Part shown: positions 3,852 to 23,546 of the stretch, one piece after another
Layout of the letters: each line of letters opens with the position of its first letter
Position numbering within the stretch: the first letter of the stretch is position 1
Source of the DNA: Desulfobulbaceae bacterium
GTDB taxonomy: Bacteria; Desulfobacterota; Desulfobulbia; Desulfobulbales; SURF-16
Assembly (NCBI GenBank): GCA_020444175.1
Contig: JAHLLM010000005.1
Coordinates: forward strand, 4,210-68,209
Direction: 5' to 3'
Length of the DNA: 64,000 bases
Program-made: the position numbers and the translations under genes
The notes under the pieces: model-generated
The model's input: the letters and a program-made list of their open reading frames with translations, nothing else
Database searches by the model: none
What the model was told of the DNA's origin: nothing

Positions 3852-4709
3852 ATGAAAGCATTAGATCTCTATCAAAGTGGACTGCAAAGGCTGAAAGAAG
3901 CCGATGTCCCGGATGCCGAGATAGAGTCCTCCCTTCTTGTAGGACATCTTTTAAACCTTTCCAGAGCGCAGGTTTTTCTTCATGAAGAAGAACTTTCTGC
4001 CAATCTTATTGATACGTTTGAGGAGAATCTTGCCCGCAGGCTGCAACGCGAGCCACTTGCCTATATTCTTGAAGAGCAGGAATTCTGGTCGCTTCCTTTT
4101 TTTGTAAATAAAGATGTTCTGGTGCCAAGACCGGAGACCGAGCTTCTTCTGGAGATTGCCTTGCAGGTTCTGAAGGGGGAAGGGCAGGAGCTGCGTGGTT
4201 CTCTTCTTGATATGGGAACAGGAAGCGGCGTAATTTCCATCGTTCTCGCCCTGGAGCTTCCCGAGTTTCATGTTTACAGCCTTGATCTTTCCATTGCAGC
4301 TCAAGCTGTTGCCAAAAAAAATGCCGAGCGACACGGGGTGGCGGATCGCATTGCTTTTATCAATTCGCATTGGCTCAGCGCCTTGCGTTCCCAGCCAAAT
4401 TTTGAACTGATCGTCAGCAACCCCCCTTACGTTGCCAGGGAGTCATTTGAGGGGCTGGAGCCTGAAGTAAGTCATTTTGAGCCGAGACTGGCTCTTGACG
4501 GAGGTAAAAAAGGTGTTGAAGAGATTCAGTCTTTTGCAACTGAGATATCTTCGGTTTTGAAGCTGGGCGGACGTTTCTTTATGGAGATCGGTGCTGACCA
4601 GGGTGATTTTGTCATGGATCTTTTTTCCGGGTTCCCTGAATTTGACAGTCTCTGCGTTTACGAGGATTACGCAGGATTGCCAAGGATTTTCCACGCCCGG
4701 CGTTCGTAA
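3852..4709 (+). CDS. prmC: Release factor glutamine N5-methyltransferase PrmC/HemK
   Basis: SAM-binding motif DMGTGSGV and catalytic NPPY, directly downstream of prfA. The ORF opens at GTG 3822; I prefer ATG 3852, but the start is uncertain. Confidence 0.88.
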   Translation: MKALDLYQSGLQRLKEADVPDAEIESSLLVGHLLNLSRAQVFLHEEELSANLIDTFEENLARRLQREPLAYILEEQEFWSLPFFVNKDVLVPRPETELLLEIALQVLKGEGQELRGSLLDMGTGSGVISIVLALELPEFHVYSLDLSIAAQAVAKKNAERHGVADRIAFINSHWLSALRSQPNFELIVSNPPYVARESFEGLEPEVSHFEPRLALDGGKKGVEEIQSFATEISSVLKLGGRFFMEIGADQGDFVMDLFSGFPEFDSLCVYEDYAGLPRIFHARRS

Positions 4710-6301: not shown

Positions 6302-9300
6302 TTAGCGCCCAAAAGCCGCGGCAAACTCTTTAGGTCCAACGGTATTGGTCATATCAGCAAGTTGCCGGGCAAAGATGGCCAGATCCAGGCCGTCCACCCA
6401 GCCGTCGCCGTCCAGATCACATATTTTGGGGATATATTCAAATGCCCCTATATCATAATAGTTATAAAGACCTCCTCCTTTGTTCGGTTCCACATTTGGA
6501 TCATCCACCCGGTCATTTCCCTCAAAATCCTGATCCGGCGCTCCGTCACTGGTCCCTGCGTCGATATTCGGTGAAGAGGATCGTAAATGATAATCTCCAT
6601 TGGCCGCATCGGTAAAAAGCGGATCAATCGAAAGGCCATCGGCAGTAAAACCCACATAGTCATAAACGGAATTAGACCAAACATTGTTAAAAGCCGCGGT
6701 TGGTTCGGTTGTTCCGGTGCTTGTTATGCCGTTATTGCCATTGACTGCAACGACATTATTTTTGATTACCACTCCCTCGCCGTCAGCCAAGGCGATGCCG
6801 TCCCGGCCGTTAAAAACACAGGTGTTGTTATATATGGCAGCTGATACACCGGCAAAGAGATGTATGCCGTCATGGTCGTTGCGGGAAATCACATTGTTTT
6901 CAATTATGAGTGACGAATTGGAGTCTCCTGCGACTCCGTGTCCGTCAGTATCCTGCAGCGCAATGGTATTTGAAATAATGTTATTGCGTATGTCAACTAT
7001 TGAGTTGTCACATAATATCCCAGCGGAGGTGCCGCCACTTATGGAAAAGCCTGAGATTTCGCCATGGCTCATGTTCCGGCAATGCACGGCAGAACTCGTT
7101 GCCGTGCTTGCGTCAATGATCGTATTCTCAGCCCTGTGGCCGATGAGAGAGATGCTTTTATCGATAGAAATATTTTCCTGATACGTGCCGGGAGCGACAA
7201 GGACCGTGTCGTTGTCGGCTGCCACGAGGATTCCTGTCTGAATCGTGTTAAATGGATGAACGGCAGAGCCGTCGATAGTGCCTGATGAATTTCCTATATC
7301 AACATATATCTCACCGGGAGCCGGAGTGTCGGCGCAATTATCCGGCTGCGTCCCGCCCAGGTATTCCCTCAGGTTGCAGTACCCGTCCCCGTCCTTGTCG
7401 TCAAAGGCGTCATACAATGACGGATTCAGACCATGATCATATTCCCAGCCATTGGGCATGCCATCCAAATCTTTATCCCCGTCCCTGGGACTGAAGTCAG
7501 CATGAATGGAATGATCGGCGGAAACATCCGTAAAAACATATGTTGATTGCGAACCGATCGACACATTGTCAACCAGAACCCGATCAATATAATAGCCGTC
7601 ATTCGGACTGATAAAATATTGCTTGTCTTCGCCAGCCCCAACAAGACTCGCGTTTGCCGGGGCGATAGTGCCGTGGTCAGCCGCTGTGGGGGTTATGGTG
7701 TAATAATTTATTGTTTCGGAAAATTTTGCCCAAATGGAATGATCACCACTTAGGTCCTCAAAGGTGTATTGGGAAACTGCTCCCTGGGAAACATTATCCA
7801 CCAGCACATATTCAATCTGATATCCAGCATCGGGAGTGATATAAAAAGTCTTGGTTTCTCCAGCCTTAATATAGAGAATGCCGTCAGGCGATATGCTTCC
7901 ATTCCCCACGGTTAAGACGGAAATATTATAAATAACGAAGTTTGTAGCAAAATTAACCTGAATCTCATGGCTTGAAGTCACATTTTCAAAGGTATAGCCG
8001 GTCGCTCCTGACGATGCTGGCTGCGGCACACCGTCTACTATTACTTCAGATACATAGTAATACTCATCCGGCGTAAAGGTAAATGCCTGGGAATCACCTT
8101 CCTTGACCGTAATCTTGCCGCTCGGGGAGATCGTGCCGTGTTGGCCCGCCGTGGTGGAAATAGTGTGGGTAATGGCGGAGAATTCCGCTTCAATCACATG
8201 GTCGCCGGCAATATTGATCAATTCATATTCCTCGGCCGGCTCAACATTTTCCCCGTCAACCAGTAAAGCGGAAACAAAATTACCCGCATCCGGGGTTATG
8301 GTGAATATCAGACTTTCTCCATGGTCGACGAGAATTTCTCCGGCCGGTGAAATAGATCCGCCAGGTCCTGCACCGGCGTGGACAGTATGTTTGCCGGGAG
8401 TAGCAAGAGCACAAAAACTGACCTGGATTTCATGATCAGAAGTCACGTTTTCCAGTGTATACCCGGCAGCCACTGACGGTTCCGTATACAGCACGCCGTC
8501 CACTATTACTCCGTACACATAGTAGCCCTCATCCGCTGTAAAGGTGAATGTCTGGGAGCCTCCGTCATTGACCGGAACGATACCGGCCGGGGATATGTCG
8601 CCGTGATACCCGGAAGTGGCGGAAATATTGTAGGTGATGGCCGAAAACTCAGCTTCAATCACATGATCGCCAAGAATATTAATAAATGCATATTCCTCGG
8701 ACGGCTCGACATTTTGGCCGTCAACCAGTAAGGCGGAAACAAAATTGCCAGGGTCAGGAGTTATGGTAAAAGTCAGGTTTTCACCATTGGTTACAGTGAT
8801 CTCCCCGGCCGGGGAGATAGAGCCGCCGGTTCCGGCACTGGCGAAGACAGTATGCTCTTCGAAAATGGTGTATATCTCTACACTGTTGCGACCTTGCGAA
8901 GCAATAAAAAGCCGATCGGATGCTCTGCCGATGGCAATCTCCATATTGGTCAACATGCGGTGATCCGGATCCCATACGGTTCCCAGAAAGTTTCCAGCGC
9001 TGGAAAATACCTGTACTGGTTCCTGGTAGGAATCAACGATAAAAATATTGCTGTCCCTGTCAATATCCACACCAATCGGCCTTGGCAGTTGCCCTTCTCC
9101 CAGAAGTTGTCCCGCCCCACCAAAACTTGACACAAAATTTCCTTCCAAGTCAAAGACCTGCACCCGATTGCTGCTTGAATAAAAATCAATAACGATCAAT
9201 TCGTCTGTGTTTTCGTCAACAGTAAGGGAAACAGGATAAACAAAACTTCCGTCCACTGAGTCCGAGCCATTGAAAGAATCCAGGAACGAGCCATCTTTTT

Positions 9301-9772
9301 CATACATTTTGACAACGAGCATATTGCTGTCAATTACATATATTTTGCCGTTTTCTCTGTTGTCAACTGCAATGGAAGCCGGGTCTACAAACTCGCCGTC
9401 TCCATCTCCGAGCTTGAAAAGGAGAGTGAAATCCTGGTCATAGACTTCCACATTTTTCCTGTTGCCATTTTTCCCATTACCGACGTATATTCTGCCATCC
9501 TCTCCCACCGCTATACTTTTCGGGGCATCAAGACCCGCGAGAGTTCCCTGCAACACTAACGAATTATCATATACCTGTATCCTGTTGTTCCCTGTCTGGA
9601 CAACATAAAGATTTTCATCCTCATCCAGGGCAACGGACACTGGCTCGTCTACGGCAATGGAGCCTGTCCTCTCGTAGCCCGCGAAGTTTTCGGCCCGAAG
9701 TGGCTGAATGGCACAGAAAAAATAAACCAGAAATACAGCCAATGACAAAAAAAGCTGAGTTTTGCTTCGCAT
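6302..9772 (-). CDS. Large secreted multidomain protein: signal peptide, NHL-type beta-propeller, 6 tandem ~75-aa Ig-like/InlB-B-repeat-like domains, TSP3-like Ca-binding linker, right-handed parallel beta-helix, C-terminal dockerin/EF-hand-like motif
   Basis: The ORF is 1163 aa. I prefer the second ATG (9772), which follows AAGGGA. Signal peptide MRSKTQLFLSLAVFLVYFFCAIQPLRA. Repeated YV.D..N.RIQVFD blades (aa ~40-310). Six tandem repeats (aa 314-768). DxDxDG-type stretch DGDKDLDGMPNGWE...DKDGDGYCN. PbH1-like repeats (NNIISN, ENNVISRNDHDGIHL, YNNTCVFNGRDGIAL, KNNVVAVNGNNGI). Tail motif CDLDGDGWVDGLDLAIFARQ. Confidence 0.85.
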   Translation of the reverse strand: MRSKTQLFLSLAVFLVYFFCAIQPLRAENFAGYERTGSIAVDEPVSVALDEDENLYVVQTGNNRIQVYDNSLVLQGTLAGLDAPKSIAVGEDGRIYVGNGKNGNRKNVEVYDQDFTLLFKLGDGDGEFVDPASIAVDNRENGKIYVIDSNMLVVKMYEKDGSFLDSFNGSDSVDGSFVYPVSLTVDENTDELIVIDFYSSSNRVQVFDLEGNFVSSFGGAGQLLGEGQLPRPIGVDIDRDSNIFIVDSYQEPVQVFSSAGNFLGTVWDPDHRMLTNMEIAIGRASDRLFIASQGRNSVEIYTIFEEHTVFASAGTGGSISPAGEITVTNGENLTFTITPDPGNFVSALLVDGQNVEPSEEYAFINILGDHVIEAEFSAITYNISATSGYHGDISPAGIVPVNDGGSQTFTFTADEGYYVYGVIVDGVLYTEPSVAAGYTLENVTSDHEIQVSFCALATPGKHTVHAGAGPGGSISPAGEILVDHGESLIFTITPDAGNFVSALLVDGENVEPAEEYELINIAGDHVIEAEFSAITHTISTTAGQHGTISPSGKITVKEGDSQAFTFTPDEYYYVSEVIVDGVPQPASSGATGYTFENVTSSHEIQVNFATNFVIYNISVLTVGNGSISPDGILYIKAGETKTFYITPDAGYQIEYVLVDNVSQGAVSQYTFEDLSGDHSIWAKFSETINYYTITPTAADHGTIAPANASLVGAGEDKQYFISPNDGYYIDRVLVDNVSIGSQSTYVFTDVSADHSIHADFSPRDGDKDLDGMPNGWEYDHGLNPSLYDAFDDKDGDGYCNLREYLGGTQPDNCADTPAPGEIYVDIGNSSGTIDGSAVHPFNTIQTGILVAADNDTVLVAPGTYQENISIDKSISLIGHRAENTIIDASTATSSAVHCRNMSHGEISGFSISGGTSAGILCDNSIVDIRNNIISNTIALQDTDGHGVAGDSNSSLIIENNVISRNDHDGIHLFAGVSAAIYNNTCVFNGRDGIALADGEGVVIKNNVVAVNGNNGITSTGTTEPTAAFNNVWSNSVYDYVGFTADGLSIDPLFTDAANGDYHLRSSSPNIDAGTSDGAPDQDFEGNDRVDDPNVEPNKGGGLYNYYDIGAFEYIPKICDLDGDGWVDGLDLAIFARQLADMTNTVGPKEFAAAFGR
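7490..8854 (-). repeat. Intragenic tandem array of six ~75-aa domain repeats (R1-R6); R1-R2 and R3-R4 form a duplicated two-domain unit
   Basis: R1 (aa 314-386) and R3 (aa 469-541) differ at 14 of 73 residues (~81% identical). R2 and R4 are ~60% identical. R5 and R6 are more diverged copies (G.ISP.G...V..G....F.I.PD.GY.....VD......Y.F..V..DH.I.A.F). Confidence 0.8.
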
Positions 9773-10415
9773 TACAGTCCCTTTATATCTCAATGGATAA
9801 CCCTATTGGTCCTTTAGGAAACAGAAATTTTTTTTAAACACAGAATGTTGAATAAATAAGACCCTGCTCAGTACATTGATGAATCTGCCGGAGTGTTCAG
9901 TGGTGCTGTTTTCAAATACGCATGTGGGGGAATTTTTGCTGCAGCATTCATACTCTCTCCATTTGATAAGTTGGAGAGTGAATTAAATCCAATAAAATCA
10001 AAAACGACAGTGAAAGTGAAACACGCCAGGGTGTTGGTCCTTCCTGTCGCTCTCTTTGATGGTTTCTACATCAAACTTAAAACTTACGCAGCAATTTTAA
10101 TACTGATACAATTTCCATGCCACGTGTTGTGGTGTGTTAGCGTAAACGCAATTTCAGTGAGTTAGGTCGTGGGGAAATACAGTCGGGAAGGAAAAGTGAT
10201 ACAAAATTCCTTTTTTCCGGAACGTTTTTTCGGAAAATAAGAAGATTGGATTAATCCAGGAAGTTTTGACAAAATCGTAAAAAATACGATTTCACCTGGT
10301 TCAGTTTTCTTAACTTGTTGGTTGAGGTGTTGCTTCGGCTTGTTTGGGTAGTTTTTTAGCCTCACAGGACATGTATATGAGACTATTAACTATTCAGATC
10401 CAAAAGATTTTTGGG

Positions 10416-11024
10416 TCAGCTAAGCGCTTTCTTTAGCGCCTTGGCATGCACATTACCGGCAATGTGAAGGGCGCTTTTTCCGGTAATCGGATCAAACTTG
10501 CTCGGGTCAGTTGGACAGAGATATTGCGCTTCCCTGGCAACACGTTCCAGAGCCTCTTCCGGAGAGAGTCCAATCAGGCGGGGTATAAGCTTCCAGGTAG
10601 CACCGCATGAAGCTCCTCTCTTTACCCTTATATCGCTGATCTTTCCGTCAGTAACTTCCACTTCATATTCCGGAATGCCGAATTGTTCACCGTATGTTCC
10701 AAGGCCGGCAAGCTTGCCCAAAGAACAGCAGGTCACCGGCGTGATGGCCTCGGCGCATTTTTTGCCGGAGGCAATGAGAGGGATGTTTTTGGTTTTGCAG
10801 AGCAGGGCAAGATGATGGAGCAGATCGGGGTGGGTCAGAAAACTGATTACCAGGTCACCATTGAAATCTTCCTGAAAATAGGGTTCTGGTTCTTCGATAA
10901 AATCGGGCAGACCTGAGGGAAGGTCAAATATCTGGGTGATCGCTATGCCGCGGCTGTATTGCTTTATACCGTCAATTTTAGCATTACCGCTGCCAGCCTG
11001 TTGAAAAATAATGATTTTTTCCAT
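10416..11024 (-). CDS. DUF166 (COG1810)-like uncharacterized protein
   Basis: 202 aa with several conserved-looking Cys (CCSLG, ASCGATW, YLCPTDP). The family assignment is from memory of DUF166 proteins and needs an HMM check. Confidence 0.5.
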   Translation of the reverse strand: MEKIIIFQQAGSGNAKIDGIKQYSRGIAITQIFDLPSGLPDFIEEPEPYFQEDFNGDLVISFLTHPDLLHHLALLCKTKNIPLIASGKKCAEAITPVTCCSLGKLAGLGTYGEQFGIPEYEVEVTDGKISDIRVKRGASCGATWKLIPRLIGLSPEEALERVAREAQYLCPTDPSKFDPITGKSALHIAGNVHAKALKKALS

Positions 11025-11526: not shown

Positions 11527-12690
11527 CTAACAGCATAGCTTAAGGATTTCCATTATGTTTTCTTTTTTATATTCCTTTAATCTCCACATTTTAGCGAGTG
11601 AAAGTGCATTTTCTGAAATAGAAGAAATTTCTTGTGCTGGAATGGAGGCTTCTGAAAGGGAAACAGGACTTTTGACGGAAACAAACCATTCTTTCAGGCG
11701 TTCAATCCCTTGCAGTGCAGCATTTTTGGGGTTTTCTCCTGAAATTCCGAAAACCCTGTCGGCAAATTGGGCAAATTTTTTGGGATTCCGTTCAGCCTGA
11801 TAACGCATCCAGCCGGGAACTACAATTGAAAGACCGGCACCGTGGGCTACATTATACAGTGCGCTCAAAGAGTGCTCTATCATGTGCATCGGAAAGCCTA
11901 CCATGCCAAGACCAGCAGCTGTCCAGCCATTTAAGGCCAGTGTTGCACACCACATGAGGTCGGCCCGTCCCTGGTAATCTTCCGGATCGGCAAGAACCTT
12001 TTCGCAGCTTTCCATTATATTTATAACCAGCCCCTCCATGAATCGATCCTGGACCGGTGTGGATGGGTCAGTGGTGGTAAAATAGAACTCAAGGATATGG
12101 GCAATGGCGTCAACTGCCCCGTATGCCGTGTAATCCGGGGGGACACTATAGGTGAGAGTCGGGTCCAGAATGGAGACTTTCGGATTGAGCAGCCGGTTGC
12201 CCACTCCGAATTTGTGTTTTTTTTCGTCATGGGTAATGACCATGCCGCCATTCATTTCCGATCCAGCCGCAGCCAGGGTAAGGACACAGGTGAGAGGCAG
12301 AGTTTTTTTTATGCTTTTTTTGCCTTTAAAAAACTGCCAAACGTCGTGGTCTACCAATGCACCGGCGGAAATGGCCTTGGCGCTGTCAATGACACTGCCG
12401 CCCCCCACGGCAACAATAACTTCAGTGTTTGCTTCCCTGGCTTTGGCGATTCCTTTCCGGACATGGCTGAGGAGAGGATTTGACTGAACCCCGCCATGCT
12501 CGATGATTTCCAGGGACTGCTTTTCCAGGGCATCTTTGACTCTGTCATAGATGCCGTTTTTTTTAATGGAATTTTTGCCGTAGACCAGGAGGATTTTTTT
12601 ACCAAAGGCGGCTGTCTCGGCCCCGATATTTTTAACAGTGTCCGTGCCGAAAAGGATTGTGGTCGGATTATGTAAGACAAAATTCTGCAT
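11527..12690 (-). CDS. Iron-containing (group III) alcohol dehydrogenase, YqhD/butanol dehydrogenase-like
   Basis: 387 aa with the GGGS.ID.AK nucleotide-binding motif (AVGGGSVIDSAKAIS) and metal-binding His residues (DAIAHILE, HMIEHSLSALYNVAHGAGL). Confidence 0.9.
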   Translation of the reverse strand: MQNFVLHNPTTILFGTDTVKNIGAETAAFGKKILLVYGKNSIKKNGIYDRVKDALEKQSLEIIEHGGVQSNPLLSHVRKGIAKAREANTEVIVAVGGGSVIDSAKAISAGALVDHDVWQFFKGKKSIKKTLPLTCVLTLAAAGSEMNGGMVITHDEKKHKFGVGNRLLNPKVSILDPTLTYSVPPDYTAYGAVDAIAHILEFYFTTTDPSTPVQDRFMEGLVINIMESCEKVLADPEDYQGRADLMWCATLALNGWTAAGLGMVGFPMHMIEHSLSALYNVAHGAGLSIVVPGWMRYQAERNPKKFAQFADRVFGISGENPKNAALQGIERLKEWFVSVKSPVSLSEASIPAQEISSISENALSLAKMWRLKEYKKENIMEILKLCC

Positions 12691-12723
12691 GGTAAACCCC
12701 TTTTTTGCTCTGAGTTACGATTT

Positions 12724-12890
12724 TTAGTCCTTAGTCGTAGGTTGGGTAAAGCGAATTAACGTCCCGAAATTGTTGGGTTTCGCTTCATTGTATTGATGCC
12801 GGGATGATGACGCTCCAAGAGCAAGAGCGAAACCCAACAGAATTACATGGCAAGTTACGCTCTACCCAACCTACCGCTTAGTCCTTAGTC
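12724..12890. repeat. MITE/REP-like nested-palindrome element (138-bp core, 12737-12874) flanked by a 13-bp direct repeat
   Basis: Terminal inverted repeats GTAGGTTGGGTAAAGCG (12737-12753) and CGCTCTACCCAACCTAC (12858-12874), with 1 mismatch. Inner perfect 14-bp inverted repeat TGTTGGGTTTCGCT (12771-12784 and 12826-12839). Direct repeat TTAGTCCTTAGTC at 12724-12736 and 12878-12890. Confidence 0.75.
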
Positions 12891-13747
12891 CTCAACCCTG
12901 CCAGTGCCAGTGAAATTGCCACAAACTCCTCGATACCCAGTTTTTCCGCACGAGTTGTGGGTTCGACATTCGCCTTGAGAAGCGCCGTGCGGACAGACTC
13001 CTTATTAAAACCGAGCAGTGCAGAGGCGGAAAGGGCGTTAAGCAGGGTTTTTCTCCGCTGTTGAAAGGCGCTTTTGACAATTTTCCTGAGAAAAGAATGG
13101 TCGTGGGGCGGCAAGGCCTGGGCTCGTTCCGGGACAGGATCAAAGGAAATTTTCACAACAACCGAATCCACCTTGGGGCGTGGATGAAATTGTCCCGGTC
13201 CCACGTCAAGCAGGTGAGTTACCCGCGCTGAACCTGCCAGGAGCACGGAAAGTATGCCGTATTCCTTGGTTCCCGGAGAGGCTACAAGGCGTTGGCCAAC
13301 TTCCTTCTGCAGCATGAGGACTGCCCAGCCCATGACCTCCCGGTTGTCGAGAAGCTTGAAGAGCAGCGGGTTTGAAATGGAGTAGGGGAGGTTGGCCACG
13401 ATTTTAAGTCGGCCGCCACACTCTTTTGCAAGGTGGTGAAAATCCGCTTTCAGGAGATCCTGGTGGATGAGTGTCACATTTTCCGCCAGATTGCCGTCGG
13501 TCTGTTGCCAGTCAATGATGCCTGAATCAAGTTCTATACCTATGACTTTTTCGACATTTCGCGACAAAGGACCCGTCAGGGTGCCCAGGCCGACGCCAAG
13601 TTCAACAACGGTGTCCTCCTCTGTCACTCCTGCCAGGGAAACGATTCTTTCGGCTGTCTGTTCATGGATAAGGAAGTTCTGGCCCAGTCTTTTTAAAGGG
13701 GCCAGTTTTTCATGTTTAAGGATTTTTTTGATCGTCTGAAGACTCAT
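12878..13747 (-). CDS. rsmA: 16S rRNA (adenine1518/1519-N6)-dimethyltransferase
   Basis: 289 aa with LGQNFL near the N-terminus, the SAM motif VVELGVGLGTLT, and NLPY. Confidence 0.93.
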   Translation of the reverse strand: MSLQTIKKILKHEKLAPLKRLGQNFLIHEQTAERIVSLAGVTEEDTVVELGVGLGTLTGPLSRNVEKVIGIELDSGIIDWQQTDGNLAENVTLIHQDLLKADFHHLAKECGGRLKIVANLPYSISNPLLFKLLDNREVMGWAVLMLQKEVGQRLVASPGTKEYGILSVLLAGSARVTHLLDVGPGQFHPRPKVDSVVVKISFDPVPERAQALPPHDHSFLRKIVKSAFQQRRKTLLNALSASALLGFNKESVRTALLKANVEPTTRAEKLGIEEFVAISLALAGLRTKD

Positions 13748-16520: not shown

Positions 16521-17615
16521 CTACGGGGTTGATTGTCGGGCCTGTGGATAGGAGCCGAGCCATTCAAAATAAGAACAGCTTTCCTGTAATCTCTCAAAGG
16601 CCTCGACAAGCACACCGTCATCGTGGTGCCCGAGCATATCGATGAAAAAGAGATATTTGCCGGGCTCATTTTTTACAGGTCGCGACTCGATACGGGTCAG
16701 GTTGATATTGCGGCGCGCCAGTATGGCCAGTGTGTCGTTCAAGGCCCCTGGACGGTCAAGAAGACCGAGCAGCAATGAGGTTTTGTCCCTGCCGCTTTTA
16801 CTGGGGGACTCTTTGCCTATCAAGACAAAGCGGGTTGTATTGCCGCGGTAATCTTCAATTCCCTTGACAACAACCTGGAGTTGGTAGGTTTTGATGGCCA
16901 GAGAGCTGGCAATGGCCGCCACAGTATGGTCTTCCGCTGCCATCTGGGCCGCCAGTCCGGTGCTGAAAACAGATTGAGTGGGGACTCCGGGCAGCTGTTT
17001 TCTCAGCCATTGCCGGCATTGGGCAAGGGGCTGGGAATGGGAAACAATGAGTTTTATGTCTTCCATGTTGCCGGAATAATTGACCAGATTGTGGGAGATG
17101 CCAAGATATTCCTCGCCGCAGATTTTAACTTTACATTTCATGAAGGCATCAAGTGAAGATGTAACAGATCCTTCAATCGAGTTTTCCAGTGGAACCATGC
17201 CGTATTGGACCCTGCCGCGTTCCACTTCGTAAAAAATATCCTCAATGGTCTCTATGGGCCGGTATTCAGCAGCCTGGCCAAAATATTTTACACCGGCAAG
17301 ATGAGAAAATGTTGCCTCCGGACCAAGGTAAGCAACCTCGACCGGTTTCTGGGAGAGCCTGCAGGTTGTGATGATTTCGTGGAAAATACTGCGCAGCGGC
17401 TCTTCTGGAAATTCCCCCTTATTCAGGCTGGAAAGTCGGTCATAGATTTGTCGTTCCCGTAGAGGGTCCCACTTTGCTTTGTTTTCCTTGGATTTCAGGT
17501 GGCCGATTTCCTTGGCACATTTGAGTCTTTCTTTCAGTAAGTTAAGGACCGTGTCGTCAATGGTGTCAATGCGGTTTCTTACATTGATCAGGGGGGCTTG
17601 GTTGTTTGTGGACAT
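16521..17615 (-). CDS. pheA: Bifunctional chorismate mutase / prephenate dehydratase (P-protein)
   Basis: N-terminal CM_2 region (R..ID.ID..LL.LL..R), a PDT domain (VAYLGPEATFSH), a TRF motif, and a C-terminal ACT domain (ESRP). Confidence 0.93.
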   Translation of the reverse strand: MSTNNQAPLINVRNRIDTIDDTVLNLLKERLKCAKEIGHLKSKENKAKWDPLRERQIYDRLSSLNKGEFPEEPLRSIFHEIITTCRLSQKPVEVAYLGPEATFSHLAGVKYFGQAAEYRPIETIEDIFYEVERGRVQYGMVPLENSIEGSVTSSLDAFMKCKVKICGEEYLGISHNLVNYSGNMEDIKLIVSHSQPLAQCRQWLRKQLPGVPTQSVFSTGLAAQMAAEDHTVAAIASSLAIKTYQLQVVVKGIEDYRGNTTRFVLIGKESPSKSGRDKTSLLLGLLDRPGALNDTLAILARRNINLTRIESRPVKNEPGKYLFFIDMLGHHDDGVLVEAFERLQESCSYFEWLGSYPQARQSTP

Positions 17616-18145
17616 AATGTAAACGTCTTGAGTTTTAAAGAGTTAATCAGGAGAGAAAGCTGACTCTTAAAAAAAAATTTAAAAGCAACTTTGATTTTCC
17701 TGAAGCTGCATGAAAGATAAATATGACCTGGTACAGTGGTATAAGGCAAAAAATATATTATTAAAGCAAATTCACTGATATGGAAAGTCAAAAAAAGACG
17801 TGCCGGAGAAAAAAGTCTGTTCTCTTCTAACTTGAAAAAATATTAAAAGTATTCTAGGGTTAAAATCATTTTTTGACGGTCTTGCAAAAAAATGCGCAAC
17901 TGCCTCGGCATGTTGCCAATTTGTTTCTATTCCATCGAGTCGATGAGGAGGTTGTGACTTTTCAGCCGAAAGGCACAAATGCAAGTTCTTCATTAACTTT
18001 GAGCTTCTTTAACGAATGAGATTTTTAACTGGTCGAAGTTAAATAATAAGGTCAACCACCCACCAGGATCTTTCTCCCTTTACACGGGGGGTAGAACGGA
18101 GACCACTCTACTGTGGCTGGCCTTAAGAAACCGGGAAGCAACGTT

Positions 18146-18745
18146 ATGAAAATAAAAAACTGGATGAAAGAAAGCCCCGTTACCGTCAGCAGAAGTGCTC
18201 TCCTGCAGGAAGCGACCGAGTTGATGAAAAAGCACTCCATCAGGCATCTTCCTGTTGTAGAAGATGAACAGCTTGTTGGGTTCATAACTGAAAGCGATAC
18301 AAGGCAGTTTTCTTTTCCGTCAATGGTGGAGGATATTCCCGTCCACCAGGTGATGGTTCTGAACCCGATTACCGTTAATGCTAATTCCAGTATCGAAACC
18401 GCTGCCCGTTTGATCCATGATTATAAAATCGGCGGTTTGCCCGTACTGGATAAGAAAAAGCTTGTCGGTATTATTACCGCCTCGGATCTGCTTTCCGCCT
18501 TTATTGAAGTACTGGGGCTTTTCAAGGCCTCAACTCGTATAGATGTGGTTGTCAGCAAGAAAGGCGGCCTGGAGGATGTGACCAGGATTATCAATGAACA
18601 GGGTGGTGAAATTATGAGTGTGGCTATCGAAAGCCACGCTGCAAGGCGAAAAGTTCATTATTTCAGACTTGAAAGGTGCGATCCCGCACCAATTGTTGAT
18701 GCATTGGAAGCTGCCGGTCATAAGGTTGTTTCCGTTATGGAGTAA
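18146..18745 (+). CDS. CBS-pair plus ACT domain regulatory protein (AcuB-like)
   Basis: Two CBS motifs (IRHLPVVEDEQLVGFITESD and IGGLPVLDKKKLVGIITASD) followed by an ACT-like C-terminus. The ORF opens at GTG 18113; I prefer ATG 18146. Confidence 0.8.
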   Translation: MKIKNWMKESPVTVSRSALLQEATELMKKHSIRHLPVVEDEQLVGFITESDTRQFSFPSMVEDIPVHQVMVLNPITVNANSSIETAARLIHDYKIGGLPVLDKKKLVGIITASDLLSAFIEVLGLFKASTRIDVVVSKKGGLEDVTRIINEQGGEIMSVAIESHAARRKVHYFRLERCDPAPIVDALEAAGHKVVSVME

Positions 18746-18752
18746 GTTTGTT

Positions 18753-19922
18753 ATGGAGAAATTTAAGGTTCAGAAGACATATGAAGAAATAAATGCCAGG
18801 ATAAAAGCTGGCGAAGCGGTTGTTGTAACCGCTGAAGAGATGGTCGGTATTGTCCGCGACAAGGGGCCGGAGGAAGCAGCCCGAACAGTTGATGTCGTGA
18901 CCACCGGGACATTTTCTCCCATGTGTTCTTCCGGCGCTTTTATAAATTTCGGGCACTCAAAGCCGACTATTAAGGCCAGCAGAGTTTGGCTAAACGGTGT
19001 GCCTGCATATGCCGGTCTTGCCGCCGTGGATGTTTACCTCGGAGCTGCAGAACTGCCCGAGGATGATCCTCTTAATATGGTTTTCCCTGGAGAATTCCGC
19101 TACGGCGGCGGACATGTCCTTGAAGATCTGCTGGCCGGGAAAAAGGTTGTATTAAAGGCCATTGCCTATGGTACGGATTGCTATCCGAATAAGGAAATCG
19201 AAAAGGAGGTAACGCTTCAGGATCTGCCCTATGCGTTGCTCATGAACCCTCGAAATGCCTATCAGAATTACAATTGCGCTGTAAACCTGTCTGATAAAAC
19301 CATTTACACCTATATGGGCACATTGCGCCCAAATGCGAAAAATGCAAATTATTGCAGTGCAGGTGAGCTGAGTCCGCTCATGAACGACCCCCTTTATAAA
19401 ACCATAGGGCTTGGCACGCGAATTTTTCTTGGAGGCGGAATCGGTTATGTCGGTTGGCACGGAACGCAGCACAACCCTGGAGTGCCAAGGCTTGAAAACG
19501 GGACGCCGAGAAAACCTGCCGGGACCTTGATGGTCTATGGTGATTTGAAACAGATGCAGGCCAGGTGGATCAAAGGAATCAGCATGCAGGGTTACGGGGC
19601 CACCATGGCAGTGGGCATTGGTATTCCCATTCCTATTCTGAATGAGGAAATGGCCCGTTTCACAGGGGTGTCTGATGATGAGCTTGTCACCCAGGTGGTT
19701 GATTATTCATATGATTATTCTCATGGGGTTGCCCGCAGCTACGGCGAGGTTTCCTATGCTCAATTGAAAACCGGTCAGATTGAGGTTAATGGACAACAAG
19801 TTACCACTTCTCCATTGTCAAGTGTTGTAAGGGCCAGAGAAATAGCCCAGACACTGAAGGCATGGATTGATAAAGGAGATTTTTTGCTTGGTGAGCCATC
19901 AACGACTTTGCCTGACAAGTAA
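18753..19922 (+). CDS. COG1900/DUF39 homocysteine-biosynthesis-type enzyme
   Basis: From ATG 18753 (MEKFKVQKTYEEINARIKAGEAVVVTAEEM...VDVVTTGTF..MCSSGAF.NFGH). The longer ORF-track version (18618) would overlap the CBS gene. The family call is from recognition of the DUF39 N-terminal pattern. Confidence 0.78.
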   Translation: MEKFKVQKTYEEINARIKAGEAVVVTAEEMVGIVRDKGPEEAARTVDVVTTGTFSPMCSSGAFINFGHSKPTIKASRVWLNGVPAYAGLAAVDVYLGAAELPEDDPLNMVFPGEFRYGGGHVLEDLLAGKKVVLKAIAYGTDCYPNKEIEKEVTLQDLPYALLMNPRNAYQNYNCAVNLSDKTIYTYMGTLRPNAKNANYCSAGELSPLMNDPLYKTIGLGTRIFLGGGIGYVGWHGTQHNPGVPRLENGTPRKPAGTLMVYGDLKQMQARWIKGISMQGYGATMAVGIGIPIPILNEEMARFTGVSDDELVTQVVDYSYDYSHGVARSYGEVSYAQLKTGQIEVNGQQVTTSPLSSVVRAREIAQTLKAWIDKGDFLLGEPSTTLPDK

Positions 19923-19937
19923 TTTTCTGCTTATAAA

Positions 19938-20702
19938 GTGAATGAAACTGATAAATACCGGAAGCTTCTTTCTGTCATAAAAGAATCCGGTAATGTTGCC
20001 GTGGCCTTTTCCGGAGGCGTCGACTCTACTTTGCTGCTTAAGGCGGCAGTCGATGTTTGCGGCCCCGACACAATCGCGTTTTTTGCACGTTCCCTGCTGC
20101 AGAAAAAAGCGGTTGAGGAAAGGGTCAGGGGGACGTGCAGGGATTTTGGCTGTACACTCCGCATCATAGACTTTAATCCTTTGTCATGGCCCGACTTTAC
20201 AGAAAACAAAGCCAACCGCTGTTATCTCTGCAAGAAGAAAATATACTCAGGCTTTATGACCAGCACGGCAGAACGATACCAGCTTCTGGACGGTACAAAT
20301 GTTGATGATTTGTCCCGCCATCGACCCGGACTGCAGGCAATCAAAGAGCTGGGGGTGAAAACTCCGTTAGTTGAGGCTGGTTTCACAAAGATGGAAATAA
20401 GGGCGCTCAGCAGGAAATTTGGTTTTTCCTGCTGGGATCTGCCTTCGGAGTCTTGCCTTGCAACCCGAGTGTTGCAGGGAGTTATCACCCCAGAGTTGTT
20501 AAAAATTGTTGATGAAGGGGAAAGGCTTTTGGCTGAAAATGGATTTTATGGCTGCAGGCTCAGGCTTGGGCCTGGAAACGCATATCTGACGATCTCTCAA
20601 GGAGATATTGTTCGTTTTGCCGCAAGTCCTTTGCGTGACAAAATTGTTGCATGGCTGGCAAAAAACACTTTTGCCAAAGTTTTTCTTGAACTTTCTGAAT
20701 GA
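19938..20702 (+). CDS. PP-loop ATP pyrophosphatase, LarE-like (COG1606) putative sulfur transferase
   Basis: GTG start. PP-loop AFSGGVDST, CxxC motif (RCYLCKK), and a third Cys in PSESCLATR, as in LarE-type enzymes. Confidence 0.75.
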   Translation: MNETDKYRKLLSVIKESGNVAVAFSGGVDSTLLLKAAVDVCGPDTIAFFARSLLQKKAVEERVRGTCRDFGCTLRIIDFNPLSWPDFTENKANRCYLCKKKIYSGFMTSTAERYQLLDGTNVDDLSRHRPGLQAIKELGVKTPLVEAGFTKMEIRALSRKFGFSCWDLPSESCLATRVLQGVITPELLKIVDEGERLLAENGFYGCRLRLGPGNAYLTISQGDIVRFAASPLRDKIVAWLAKNTFAKVFLELSE

Positions 20703-20874: not shown

Positions 20875-21147
20875 ATGAATAAAAGTGAATTGGTTGAAAG
20901 GATGGCTTCTGCGGCTGGAATCAGTAAGGCTGCGGCAGAAAAAGCATTAACCGGGTTTATTGATGGCGTAACCGACGCTTTGGCGGATGGTGGCAAAGTT
21001 ACTTTGGTAGGTTTTGGTACTTTTTCTGTTTCAGAGCGTGCTGCACGCCAGGGAAGAAATCCTCAGACCGGTGCTACCATTGAAATTCCAGCAAGGACTG
21101 TTGCTCGTTTTAAAGCGGGAAGCAAACTTGCTGATGCTGTTAAATAA
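20875..21147 (+). CDS. hup: Nucleoid-associated DNA-binding protein HU
   Basis: 90 aa starting MNKSELVE, with GFGTFSVSERAARQGRNPQTG..I.IPA. GGAG RBS. Confidence 0.93.
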   Translation: MNKSELVERMASAAGISKAAAEKALTGFIDGVTDALADGGKVTLVGFGTFSVSERAARQGRNPQTGATIEIPARTVARFKAGSKLADAVK

Positions 21148-21245: not shown

Positions 21246-21284
21246 GCGGAGAAATTTTCCATTAATTTCTCCGCTTCTTTTTTT
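21246..21284 (+). terminator. Rho-independent terminator of hup
   Basis: 10-bp stem GCGGAGAAAT (21246-21255) / ATTTCTCCGC (21265-21274), followed by TTCTTTTTTT. Confidence 0.7.
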
Positions 21285-21375: not shown

Positions 21376-21452
21376 CGGGATGTAGCGCAGTCTGGTAGCG
21401 CATCTGCTTCGGGAGCAGGGGGTCGGAGGTTCAAATCCTCTCATCCCGACCA
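21376..21452 (+). tRNA. tRNA-Pro (anticodon CGG)
   Basis: Hand-folded cloverleaf: acceptor CGGGATG/CATCCCG, D-arm GCGC-AGTCTGGTA-GCGC, anticodon loop TTCGGGA, T-arm GGAGG-TTCAAAT-CCTCT, encoded CCA. Confidence 0.93.
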
Positions 21453-21582
21453 GTTATATCAAATACTTACAGGTAATAAAATCTTAACTGAGAGTTCTTG
21501 GGCGGGGCTTATCTTTTTTAACCTGTGAATGGAGTTGTTTTTGAGATTTCCGGATCTTTCTCTAAACTCTCAAAAAAAAGCA

Positions 21583-21879
21583 TCAAGTTTTTATCAGTTC
21601 CCAATCCCAATACAGATTTTTTACCTGAGTTCGGATTGTCCCGTCTGGATGTATGAGTCTGGCTTTTAACCATGGCTTACTGTCTCCATCCATATTGACT
21701 TCAGCCACTTCATATTTTCTGCTGGCCGATTCAACTGTGCTGCCAGGCTTAACATTCCAAAGCTGCCTTGCTCTCTTTCTTTCCAGTACTGATATCTGTT
21801 CACGGACTGCTTGCAGTTCATCAGTCAACCTGGCTTCAGTGTCTCTGAGTATTTCGATTTTGTGGTCAATGCTTTTCAT
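21583..21879 (-). CDS. Hypothetical protein (98 aa, N-terminal coiled coil), island-borne
   Basis: Clean ORF whose ATG overlaps the end of the integrase C-terminal fragment. I recognise no family. Confidence 0.5.
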   Translation of the reverse strand: MKSIDHKIEILRDTEARLTDELQAVREQISVLERKRARQLWNVKPGSTVESASRKYEVAEVNMDGDSKPWLKARLIHPDGTIRTQVKNLYWDWELIKT

Positions 21880-22480
21880 TTATTTTTTTCTCTGGTTCTT
21901 CCATGGGAAAAGTTACCTCATCCATGGCAGCTTTCGCACTTTGATCAATAGTTGATAAATAAATTTCTGTGGTCCGGACATCCTGATGTCTCAGAAGTCA
22001 CCCATCTTTTATTTTCCTGGTTCTCAGAGTGACTATTTTATGTTTAAAATCCACATGCTCCCATTCAAGCCTTAATACCTCATCGATGCGACCCAAGAGA
22101 TGAAGGGTAGTGGTTATCAGATCCCGCTCATCTGTCTTCGGATCGGCCGCAAATATGAGCTGACCGATTTCTTTCTTACTTGCTATTTTTTTCTTGGCTT
22201 TCTCATGTGGCATTTTATCCACTACACCACAGGGATTATGAGTGATGATTTGCATCTTATCCCGGGCGTAAGTGAACATGGCAGAAATATCGTTCCTGCG
22301 GGCATTCCACTGATTATTTGAGGCTAGGGTCAGAAGGTATGAGATTACATCCAACCCTTCTTTTGCTTGTCGTAGCAGACTGCCATAAAGGTCACCTTTA
22401 CTGAATCGGGTCATGAAAGGGGTAACGTCTGCTTTTGGCTTTTGTTCTTTGATGTTGTTCAGATGTTTTTCAGCACCCTG
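21866..22480 (-). pseudogene. Tyrosine recombinase/integrase pseudogene (internal deletion with in-frame stop)
   Basis: The N-terminal SAM-like region and the Arg-I box (LLGRIDEVLRLEWEHVDF) read to TGA at 22000-21998. The next in-frame codons encode LLRHQDVRTTEIYLSTIDQS, the C-terminal His/Tyr box. The ~100 aa between the two catalytic segments are missing. Confidence 0.75.
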
Positions 22481-22544
22481 CAAAACCTTATATGTTAAGG
22501 GCCCGTGCGAGTTCGATTCTCGCTCTGATATAGCAAAATAAAAG

Positions 22545-22769
22545 TTAAACAGCCTCTTTGAGCTTCTCTGCAATCCATACTTTAACAAGGGCCTGCCTTG
22601 TTATTCCAAGTCTTTTTGACTCCTTGTCAAGCTTTGTTACTACCCATGCCGGAAAGTCTATATTGACGCGCTTAGGCTCTTGATTGATACGCCGAGCTTT
22701 TGAAAAATCAAGATCACCCGTCATATCTTCGCCAGCATCAAATTTTTTATCAAATTCTTTAGCTTTCAT
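22545..22769 (-). CDS. brnA: BrnA-type antitoxin (CopG/RHH family)
   Basis: 74 aa with KRVNIDFPAWVVTKLDKESKRLGITRQALVKVWI, typical of BrnA. Overlaps the brnT stop by 11 nt. Confidence 0.8.
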   Translation of the reverse strand: MKAKEFDKKFDAGEDMTGDLDFSKARRINQEPKRVNIDFPAWVVTKLDKESKRLGITRQALVKVWIAEKLKEAV

Positions 22770-23022
22770 AATATTGAATCTCCTTTTCCCTTGAGCGACG
22801 GGCAGAAATAATTCTTATCGAGTCGTTTCTGTAAGTAATAACAACAGACCAGTGTTTTTTGTCGATTTTTCCTATTACAAGACAACGCCCTTCGTCCTGT
22901 ACTGTTTTTGCCGGAATTTCTAACACGTCCCAATCATCCCAAAGAGCTTGTACCTCGTCAAAATCAATACCGTGTTTGAGCTTATTGGTTTCGCTCTTTT
23001 TTTCGTCAAAATCAAATCTCAT
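22759..23022 (-). CDS. brnT: BrnT-type ribonuclease toxin (DUF497)
   Basis: From MRFDFDEKKSETNKLKHGIDFDEV...RCLVIGK...VVITYRNDSIRIISARRSREKE, the DUF497/BrnT pattern. The ORF-track N-terminal extension (to 23073) is unlikely. Confidence 0.85.
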   Translation of the reverse strand: MRFDFDEKKSETNKLKHGIDFDEVQALWDDWDVLEIPAKTVQDEGRCLVIGKIDKKHWSVVITYRNDSIRIISARRSREKEIQYYES

Positions 23023-23261
23023 ATTGATATAATGTATATCCTCTGGGGTAAAATGCAATAATAAATATACCATTCCTACTCAAAAAAGAGGGGGCAAGGG
23101 GGCAGAAGTGACTATTCAACTTAAGCCCTCATAATTATTAAAATCATGAAATCTGGTGGCGATTTTAATTCTTTCAGATGCTTTTTAACGTAAATGCCGC
23201 ACTCCATGCCTTGTAGAATCAACTATACAAGGCATTAAAAAGTAAGACTAACTGCTTCGGG

Positions 23262-23309
23262 TGCAGGGGGCGGAGGTTCAAATCCTCTCATCTTGACCAT
23301 TTGTTTTGC
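23262..23309 (+). repeat. Partial duplicate of the tRNA-Pro 3' half (att-type direct repeat)
   Basis: CTGCTTCGGGTGCAGGGGGCGGAGGTTCAAATCCTCTCATCTTGACCA compared with tRNA positions 21404-21452: 4 differences including a 1-nt deletion. There is no 5' half, so it is not a functional tRNA. Confidence 0.85.
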
Positions 23310-23465
23310 AGTGACCCCCAAGTCCTTCAACTCTCCAGCCAAAAGGATTTCTTCTTTTTGCTTTCCTGTTTTTTGAATTTTAGAAATTTCTTCTGCTGAA
23401 ATTCAGTAAAATTCCGACATCCCTTATCGACCTTGGCGTTTCACCTGGGTTTTTCATGCTTCTGC

Positions 23466-23494
23466 TTGTTTAGACTTGGTTCCATGAGTATAAT
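23466..23494 (+). promoter_or_regulatory. Putative sigma-70-type promoter of the flagellin gene
   Basis: TTGTTT (23466-23471), 17-nt spacer, consensus TATAAT (23489-23494), ~50 nt upstream of the GGAGG RBS. Confidence 0.45.
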
Positions 23495-23546
23495 AAAGAG
23501 ATAAGGTCAAAATCTTTTTCTTTTCTCGTTTCAGGAGGGGGACATT

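Follow-up and report, generated by a model that had tools for sequence, protein, structure and literature searches.

Aldehyde sulfurtransferases of the COG1900 family serve the synthesis of homocysteine and coenzyme M in anaerobes. In the closest described systems, those of Methanosarcina acetivorans (MA1821 with MA1822 and MA1715) and Desulfovibrio (Dde_3007, DVU2938, DvMF_1464), homocysteine is made from aspartate semialdehyde, the established substrate (PMC5764234; PMC12068725), by an L-aspartate-semialdehyde sulfurtransferase (abbreviated L-ASST) of the COG1900a or DUF39 type, together with a NIL-ferredoxin (MA1822, DvMF_0262) and an ApbE-like COG2122 protein (MA1715, DvMF_0044), the latter two being distinct proteins (PMC5764234; PMC4045070). 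The sulfur species and cofactor of these enzymes are explicitly described as unresolved (PMC12068725). Here we describe a three-gene block from a Desulfobulbaceae bacterium (GenBank assembly GCA_020444175.1, contig JAHLLM010000005.1), in which a DUF39 gene stands between genes for an AcuB-like regulator and a LarE-like PP-loop protein. The block occupies positions 18,146 to 20,702 of the 64,000-nucleotide stretch that we analysed (contig positions 4,210 to 68,209, forward strand), hereafter called the window.

Archaeal L-ASST (MJ0100, MA1821) carries a fused C-terminal pair of CBS domains, a Bateman module for which sensing of S-adenosylmethionine has been reported, whereas the Desulfovibrio form lacks the fused pair and its partner genes are unlinked (DvMF_1464, DvMF_0262 and DvMF_0044 lie scattered on the chromosome; PMC5764234). 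AcuB of Bacillus subtilis and Geobacillus stearothermophilus, which inhibits the deacetylase AcuC, is a sensor of adenine nucleotides and diadenosine tetraphosphate (Ap4A), with an ACT domain that binds and inhibits the partner enzyme (PMC13121692; PMC13039410). LarE acts on pyridinium biscarboxylate mononucleotide (P2CMN), the product of LarB, and in the Lactobacillus plantarum enzyme S180, R212 and R214 are the ligands of the P2CMN phosphate (PMC9283937); the [4Fe-4S] LarEs of Thermotoga maritima and Methanococcus maripaludis (8CNZ) are encoded in larB-larE-larC operons. Some 15% of genomes carry larB, larC and larE without LarA (PMC11796402). None of the characterised L-ASST systems has been reported to be flanked by an AcuB-type regulator and LarE (plus LarB in one lineage), as seen here and in other Desulfobacterota lineages.

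The genome data covered are those of the window, and statements made here on larA, larB, larC, the NIL-ferredoxin and COG2122 in the source genome have that scope. Three open reading frames (ORFs) lie co-oriented on the forward strand at 18146–18745, 18753–19922 and 19938–20702, with gaps of 7 nt and 15 nt, exactly as an earlier, sequence-only reading of this DNA had described. They encode, respectively, an AcuB-family protein of 199 aa (two CBS domains, then an ACT domain at the C terminus), a predicted catalytic subunit of L-ASST of 389 aa (COG1900a/DUF39/HcyBio) and a LarE-family protein of 254 aa, a predicted PP-loop ATP pyrophosphatase of the [4Fe-4S] (CxxC...C) type. The first gene has an alternative GTG start at 18113, which would give a protein of 210 aa; the DUF39 gene starts with ATG after the stop of the AcuB-like gene, with GGAG 10 nt before the ATG; and larE starts with GTG, with no evident Shine-Dalgarno sequence before it. 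No convincing terminator or promoter was found within the block, and we infer that the three genes are co-transcribed.

The middle protein matches PF01837 (HcyBio) at 528.9 bits (E 6e-159; cutoff 26.2) across profile positions 1–349 of 349, which bears out the earlier assignment of the gene at 18753 to COG1900. Its cysteines C58 (PMCSSG) and C143 (GTDCYP) are invariant in 22 close homologues, C58 aligns with a cysteine of the archaeal-type protein P0122, and the pair appears to match the two near-universal cysteines of COG1900a, MA1821 Cys54 (essential) and Cys131, in a numbering transferred from the published description (PMC12068725). Homologues bear the public names ‘L-aspartate semialdehyde sulfurtransferase’ or ‘homocysteine biosynthesis protein’. 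The protein has no fused CBS or ferredoxin domain, resembling the Desulfovibrio form in the former respect, and judged by its full-length family match and both cysteines it is predicted to be a COG1900a-type L-ASST of homocysteine synthesis. We rejected assignment to COG1900d, the MMP16/ComF paralogue into which a ferredoxin domain is inserted, as the 135.8 bits obtained with TIGR03287 fall short of its cutoff (363.95) and the ferredoxin motif CxxCxxCxxxC[PAG] occurs in no frame of the window. An AlphaFold model of the protein was poor (mean predicted local distance difference test, pLDDT, 49.7), its input homologues all being at ≥75% identity.

Neither the NIL-ferredoxin, nor LarA, nor the ApbE-like COG2122 protein was found in the 64 kb. 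The earlier reading had treated COG2122 and the NIL-ferredoxin as one protein, which they are not (PMC5764234), and had drawn attention to a LarE-like neighbour in place of the ferredoxin partner. The observation stands, in that no ferredoxin motif lies in the window, but it is uninformative: because the Desulfovibrio pathway genes are scattered, a ferredoxin partner that is not adjacent to DUF39 is normal for the phylum, and no such partner was seen as a recurrent neighbour across 80 Desulfobacterota DUF39 loci.

The third protein exceeds the cutoff of the LarE equivalog model TIGR00268 (212.3 bits; cutoff 150) and carries SGGVDS at 25–30, C95xxC98 and C173-L-A-T176-R177, the motifs on which it had first been recognised as LarE-like. 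Its matches in the PDB include L. plantarum LarE (5udq) and the [4Fe-4S] LarE of M. maripaludis (8cnz), and its AlphaFold model (pLDDT 95) has only LarE structures among its top 50 PDB fold matches (template-modelling score, TM, 0.78–0.86; ~0.85 to 8cnz). C95, C98 and C173 align with the cysteines of 8cnz, and the PP-loop and cysteine triad are invariant in 110 family members. T176, R207 and R209 correspond to S180, R212 and R214 of the L. plantarum enzyme, with threonine replacing the usual serine. All 37 homologues adjacent to DUF39 have the PP-loop, C95/C98/C173, T176, R177 and R207, and 35 of the 37 have R209. In fold, PP-loop, cysteine triad and P2CMN phosphate ligands the protein is thus like the [4Fe-4S] LarEs of T. 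maritima and M. maripaludis; unlike larBC-linked LarEs, it scores ~100 bits lower on the family model, has threonine at the S180-equivalent position, lacks the C-terminal GY(R/K)SGS tail (missing from Desulfobulbales LarEs), and lies downstream of DUF39 with larB and larC not adjacent.

The first protein was described at the outset as a CBS pair joined to an ACT domain. Pfam detects two CBS domains (102.8 bits) and no ACT domain, and residues 1–197 of 199 align to the AcuB-type CBS+ACT structure 5awe (99.8 bits), with further full-length matches to Geobacillus AcuB (9s4w), to 9s4v and to 1vr9 (‘CBS domain protein/ACT domain protein’) and a match to 9qs7, so that the description holds from end to end. 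The stretch I32-R33-H34-L-P-V is identical to that of G. stearothermophilus AcuB, the B. subtilis nucleotide ligands R33 and H34 are kept, and R53 lies near the R51 position (alignment against PMC13121692). The two-module architecture and the nucleotide-bridging R33-H34 motif make the protein probably an adenine-nucleotide-sensing regulatory adaptor. It differs from the Bacillus and Geobacillus systems in its neighbours, DUF39 and LarE; a Pfam scan of window ORFs ≥150 aa lying outside larger annotated genes returned none of acuA, acuC and acsA (GNAT, deacetylase and acetyl-CoA synthetase, respectively).

The suggestion that the CBS pair had been split off from the archaeal fusion did not survive: the protein and the CBS pair fused in P0122 are only 27% identical over 98 aa, and MJ0100 ranks about tenth among the protein’s structure matches, at 53 bits versus ~100 bits for AcuB structures, which amounts to generic CBS similarity. 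Unlike the archaeal fused pair, the Bateman module here stands on a polypeptide of its own, to which an ACT domain is added. Since a Bateman module is nevertheless associated with the same enzyme in archaea, a regulatory role of the AcuB-like protein on DUF39 is plausible by analogy.

Conservation of the neighbourhood was examined in a DUF39-anchored sample of one genome per species, comprising 80 loci, all from Thermodesulfobacteriota, with DUF39 at 64–84% identity; broader alignments proved too diverse for locus scans, so narrower ones were used, and neighbours were called by crude ORF picking backed by tblastn. Homologues of our LarE at 44–62% identity all lie in the block tsaD-moaA-pheA | [AcuB] DUF39 LarE HU, which proves little alone because the flanks are also conserved. 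Among the 81 species loci with enough sequence, 32 have LarE immediately 3′ of DUF39 and co-oriented with it, representing at least five lineages with differing flanks: 24 share the Desulfobulbales context and eight have other contexts (Ca. Electronema, with the upstream side rearranged, Desulfobaccales, a Syntrophobacter and two unplaced lineages). Both flanks vary among lineages, while the pair stays on the same strand, 14–270 nt apart. AcuB lies directly 5′ of DUF39 in 17 of 83 loci, spread over four clades. LarE never follows DUF39 in Desulfobacterales (~35 loci; context kdsA, M23 peptidase, DUF39, thpR, recA, alaS), in a Desulfatiglandales-like group or in Syntrophales.

As a control, we counted for each gene family the DUF39 clades in which it lies no more than two genes away from DUF39. 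The count was four for LarE and AcuB (tblastn brings LarE to five), two for kdsA and an unnamed family (c15), and one for all others. The adjacency of DUF39 and LarE is thus kept to a degree well above that of background synteny, which answers the doubt, voiced when the block was first read, that its genes might not be syntenic in relatives. As far as the searchable literature goes, the pairing is, as then supposed, undescribed: no paper links LarE to COG1900/DUF39 or to homocysteine biosynthesis. In one preprint, the genes found repeatedly near Thi4 include both LarE and HcyBio. Syntrophobacteraceae-type loci (L064, L069 at 12053–13042, L081, L090–L092, L097, L159 and L167) carry, directly after DUF39 or DUF39-LarE, a gene for a ThiI-like PP-loop protein of 329 aa that has an NFACT-R_2 domain at its C terminus, by its sequence a second sulfur-insertase-type gene beside the homocysteine enzyme. 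Sulfur-insertion genes thus tend to co-localise, ThiI-like after DUF39 and LarE and HcyBio near Thi4.

A reverse scan, anchored on LarE, covered 80 metagenome loci. DUF39 lay directly upstream in five; some 30 were larB-larE-larC operons of the classical kind, frequently accompanied by Fur and CbiM/CbiQ-type transporters; 17 had no lar neighbour within ~2.5 kb; and DUF39 was combined with larB or larC in none. Taken pairwise, the three genes of the block occur in all combinations: AcuB-DUF39 without adjacent LarE (L085, L060), DUF39-LarE without AcuB (many loci) and AcuB-LarE without DUF39 (L134). At the last of these (9348–10786), the AcuB-like and LarE genes make up a unit of two with a 4-nt overlap, flanked by genes for CTP synthase and a chemoreceptor, with no DUF39 within 10 kb. 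At L034 (7265–11978), and likewise at L037, genes for the AcuB-like protein, acetyl-CoA synthetase, DUF39 and LarE are co-oriented and contiguous; these are the only two loci in which acetyl-CoA synthetase, an enzyme that classical AcuB regulates indirectly, adjoins the AcuB-like gene.

Neither larB nor larC was detected in the window by Pfam or tblastn, in agreement with the first reading. A tblastn search for LarB and LarC in the window together with every DUF39-anchored locus, 1.46 Mb in total, gave one match, a LarB in L067 that lies just upstream of AcuB-DUF39-LarE. The four nearest usable relatives of that LarB (L170–L173; 53–82% identity) all show the order DUF6657-LarB-AcuB-DUF39-LarE-HU, and the LarBs of these five loci are bona fide (NF033503, 245–255 bits; cutoff 175). 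No LarC lies within 8 kb of these clusters. The block in our window is the same cluster minus DUF6657-LarB. No Desulfobulbaceae-named relative of this LarB appeared among the top 120 matches, most of which lack names, which makes this negative uninformative. The DUF6657 protein (~185 aa; 3184–3735 in L067, 7433–7993 in L170, and present in L171, L172 and L173) always stands directly 5′ of LarB and nowhere else in the fetched loci; a search of the literature for DUF6657 found nothing. Most LarEs of this lineage lack the C-terminal domain while keeping the PP-loop, CxxC and third cysteine; the shortened proteins (185–214 aa; L067 6630–7226, L170 11016–11630, L172 4403–5047, L173 3077–3634) end at slightly different points, and the lost domain is the one that carries the RxR phosphate ligands.

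A LarB that precedes AcuB-DUF39-LarE in a related lineage points to P2CMN as the substrate of LarE. Conserved P2CMN ligands and a co-clustering LarB make a true LarE the simplest identity for the PP-loop protein, which most likely acts on LarB’s product and is not an activator of a homocysteine precursor. This runs counter to the role first proposed for it, in which it supplied sulfur to the COG1900 enzyme or adenylated a homocysteine precursor: the LarE catalytic residues are all kept, and LarB precedes the same block in the related lineage.

Our preferred explanation, held with somewhat less than even confidence, is that the block is one operon in which a sensor and two separate sulfide-dependent sulfur-insertion enzymes come under shared control. 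DUF39 would be a housekeeping L-ASST that forms homocysteine from aspartate semialdehyde and reduced sulfur, working with two partners encoded elsewhere, a NIL-ferredoxin and a COG2122 protein. The [4Fe-4S] LarE would adenylate the carboxylates of P2CMN and replace them, with a non-core sulfide of its cluster as the sulfur source, to give pyridinium bis-thiocarboxylate mononucleotide (P2TMN). The AcuB-type Bateman and ACT adaptor would read adenine-nucleotide (or adenosyl) status and modulate one or both enzymes through protein–protein contact. The genes would then have been kept together by shared regulation and by sulfur and Fe-S physiology, and not by any action of LarE on a homocysteine precursor; LarE and DUF39 would share no direct reaction. 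That the AcuB-like gene pairs separately with each partner, with DUF39 alone in L085 and L060 and with LarE alone in L134, counts in favour of this explanation, as does the tendency of sulfur-insertion genes to co-localise.

Several observations weigh against it. Shared regulation is inferred, and Rfam, a consensus scan and a leader alignment found no promoter or regulatory RNA at the operon. An adjacency that survives many rearrangements of its flanks usually reflects a tighter functional tie than co-regulation. In L034 and L037 the AcuB-like gene adjoins that of acetyl-CoA synthetase, so that the target of the AcuB-like protein may be neither DUF39 nor LarE. DUF39-adjacent LarEs score 212–288 bits on the LarE model, versus 330–337 for larBC-linked ones, and these low scores, with the loss of the C-terminal domain in the LarB-cluster lineage, could mean a changed function. 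Finally, larC was never seen beside any DUF39-LarE or LarB-AcuB-DUF39-LarE cluster, and neither larB nor larC was found in the covered part of the source genome.

A direct biochemical link, in which a Lar product serves DUF39, is the exciting case, although we consider it rather unlikely. Here LarB and LarE would make P2TMN (or, with a larC elsewhere, the nickel-pincer nucleotide, NPN), which DUF39 would use in the aldehyde-to-thiol step, either as a sulfur donor of the thiocarboxylate kind or as a cofactor for hydride transfer. Such a link would account for DUF39 lying between two lar genes in five of the five closest LarB relatives examined, for clusters that contain LarB and no larC, and for a pair kept through at least four flank rearrangements; it would also meet the unsettled sulfur source of L-ASST (PMC12068725) and the expectation, from genomes with larBCE and no larA, that the pathway has further users (PMC11796402). 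Set against this is the evidence that DUF39 can do without LarE. Desulfovibrio genetics for homocysteine names only DUF39, the NIL-ferredoxin and COG2122 (PMC5764234), and the MMP16 paralogue of COG1900 is active when expressed in Escherichia coli (PMC12068725). While DUF39 was retained, LarE disappeared from L023, L028 and L035 (a Desulfopila-related group) and from some of the Syntrophobacteraceae, and the Desulfobacterales loci lack it. LarE is also the fastest-evolving gene of the block: compared with L001, it shows 55% identity, against 84–90% for DUF39, AcuB, pheA and HU, and its ratio of non-synonymous to synonymous substitution rates (dN/dS) is 0.17–0.32, some three to six times that of DUF39 (0.03–0.10; neighbours overall 0.02–0.14). 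These values suggest that larE is functional but under relaxed constraint. On account of the Desulfovibrio genetics, the activity of the paralogue in E. coli, repeated loss and relaxed evolution, we regard LarE as dispensable for DUF39. The truncation of LarE in the very lineage that keeps LarB, and the lack of any DUF39-LarE fusion among the 150 best family representatives (where the unusually long proteins are chimeric and carry unrelated domains), also tell against a direct link.

Adjacency without function, in which an ancestral accident placed larE after DUF39 in an order that some lineages have so far left unbroken, is likewise unlikely. It draws on the Desulfobulbales block, wholly syntenic from tsaD to HU, so that the majority of the 32 cases cannot be counted as independent, and on a LarE gene under relaxed constraint and often lost. 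It is further helped by the bootstrapped neighbour-joining tree of LarE, which recovers a Desulfobulbales group (90%) and a Desulfobaccales group (97%) and leaves the deep branching unresolved, with DUF39-linked LarEs neither shown as one clade nor placed relative to larBC-linked ones; for that reason we do not argue that LarE was recruited independently or that it is a distinct paralogue. Inherited order fits poorly, however, with a control in which other neighbour families of DUF39 span at most two clades and LarE and AcuB four to five, with a pair that remains close and co-oriented while its flanks differ, and with the occurrence of AcuB, DUF39 and LarE in all three pairwise combinations.

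A more novel proposal makes DUF39 a client of the Lar pathway, with pyridinium bis-thiocarboxylate mononucleotide from LarB and LarE, with or without nickel, as its sulfur donor or redox cofactor, and with the AcuB-like protein gating the step by adenine-nucleotide status; taken as a whole, we think it improbable. Recruitment of the LarE-like protein into homocysteine synthesis itself, to adenylate and thiolate a carboxylate precursor such as aspartate or to pass sulfur to DUF39, perhaps replacing COG2122, might be read from the conserved adjacency, from the failure to find larB or larC in the 64 kb and from DUF39-adjacent LarEs that diverge from larBC-linked ones on the LarE model and never share a locus with larC, but it is very unlikely, given that the invariant P2CMN phosphate ligands and catalytic residues are hard to explain for an amino-acid substrate, that LarB co-clusters in a related lineage, that the 17 LarE-anchored loci with no lar neighbour make the absence of nearby larB and larC say little, that aspartate semialdehyde needs no adenylation and that LarE is lost where DUF39 is retained.

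Upstream of the block, a leader of 530 nt (17616–18145, forward strand) separates the AcuB-like gene from a divergent gene for chorismate mutase/prephenate dehydratase (pheA; 16521–17615, reverse strand; Pfam CM_2, PDT and ACT in relatives, plus tblastn), which is context only: pheA is a left boundary specific to Desulfobulbales and a neighbour of DUF39 in a single clade. A consensus scan of the leader found no sigma-70 site, and the region 17560–18200 gave no credible Rfam match even at E values up to 1; at gathering thresholds, Rfam matched two tRNAs only in the window. A leader alignment showed blocks at ~17755–17790 and ~17817–17873 conserved solely with the closest relatives, and a riboswitch or leader RNA upstream of the operon was rejected on the lack of a credible Rfam match and on conservation limited to the nearest relatives. 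The closest relatives, L001 and L003, have a leader shorter by ~200 nt.

Downstream and outside the module, a gene for an HU-type DNA-binding protein (20875–21147, forward strand; Pfam families listed in relatives) follows after a 172-nt spacer, with a strong GAGGAG ribosome-binding site, and a hairpin resembling a terminator lies beyond it at 21246–21274; HU is a conserved downstream neighbour, probably in its own transcription unit. Between tRNA-Pro (21376–21452) and a flagellin gene, some 2.1 kb (21453–23546) hold small reverse-strand ORFs (21583–21879, 21998–22588, 22545–22769 and 22759–23073) that are missing from L001 and L003, where HU runs directly into flagellin; this region is probably the remnant of an element inserted at tRNA-Pro. 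Elsewhere on the reverse strand, 6302–9793 encodes a 1163-aa protein with NHL repeats and with InlB B-repeat-like and right-handed beta-helix/NosD-like domains, unrelated to the three-gene block. The remainder of the 64 kb is ordinary chromosome (rho, prfA, a murA-type EPSP transferase gene, ilvC, murJ, lpxK, lpxC, proC, a NAD kinase gene, rpoD, comEC and others).

The recurrent pairing of DUF39 and LarE looks like a real, unexplained link between two sulfur-insertion pathways. The AcuB-DUF39-LarE operon and the LarB-AcuB-DUF39-LarE cluster of its sister lineage provide a testable hypothesis that joins two questions, the sulfur source of COG1900 enzymes and the purpose of lar genes in genomes that have no LarA. 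If DUF39 were a Lar client, it would be one of the missing non-LarA users of larB and larE, and its sulfur donor or cofactor would be the long-sought one. If the link is only regulatory, it would provide a new set of targets for the recently characterised AcuB energy sensors, and even then it would caution against reading every LarE annotation as lactate-racemase maturation.

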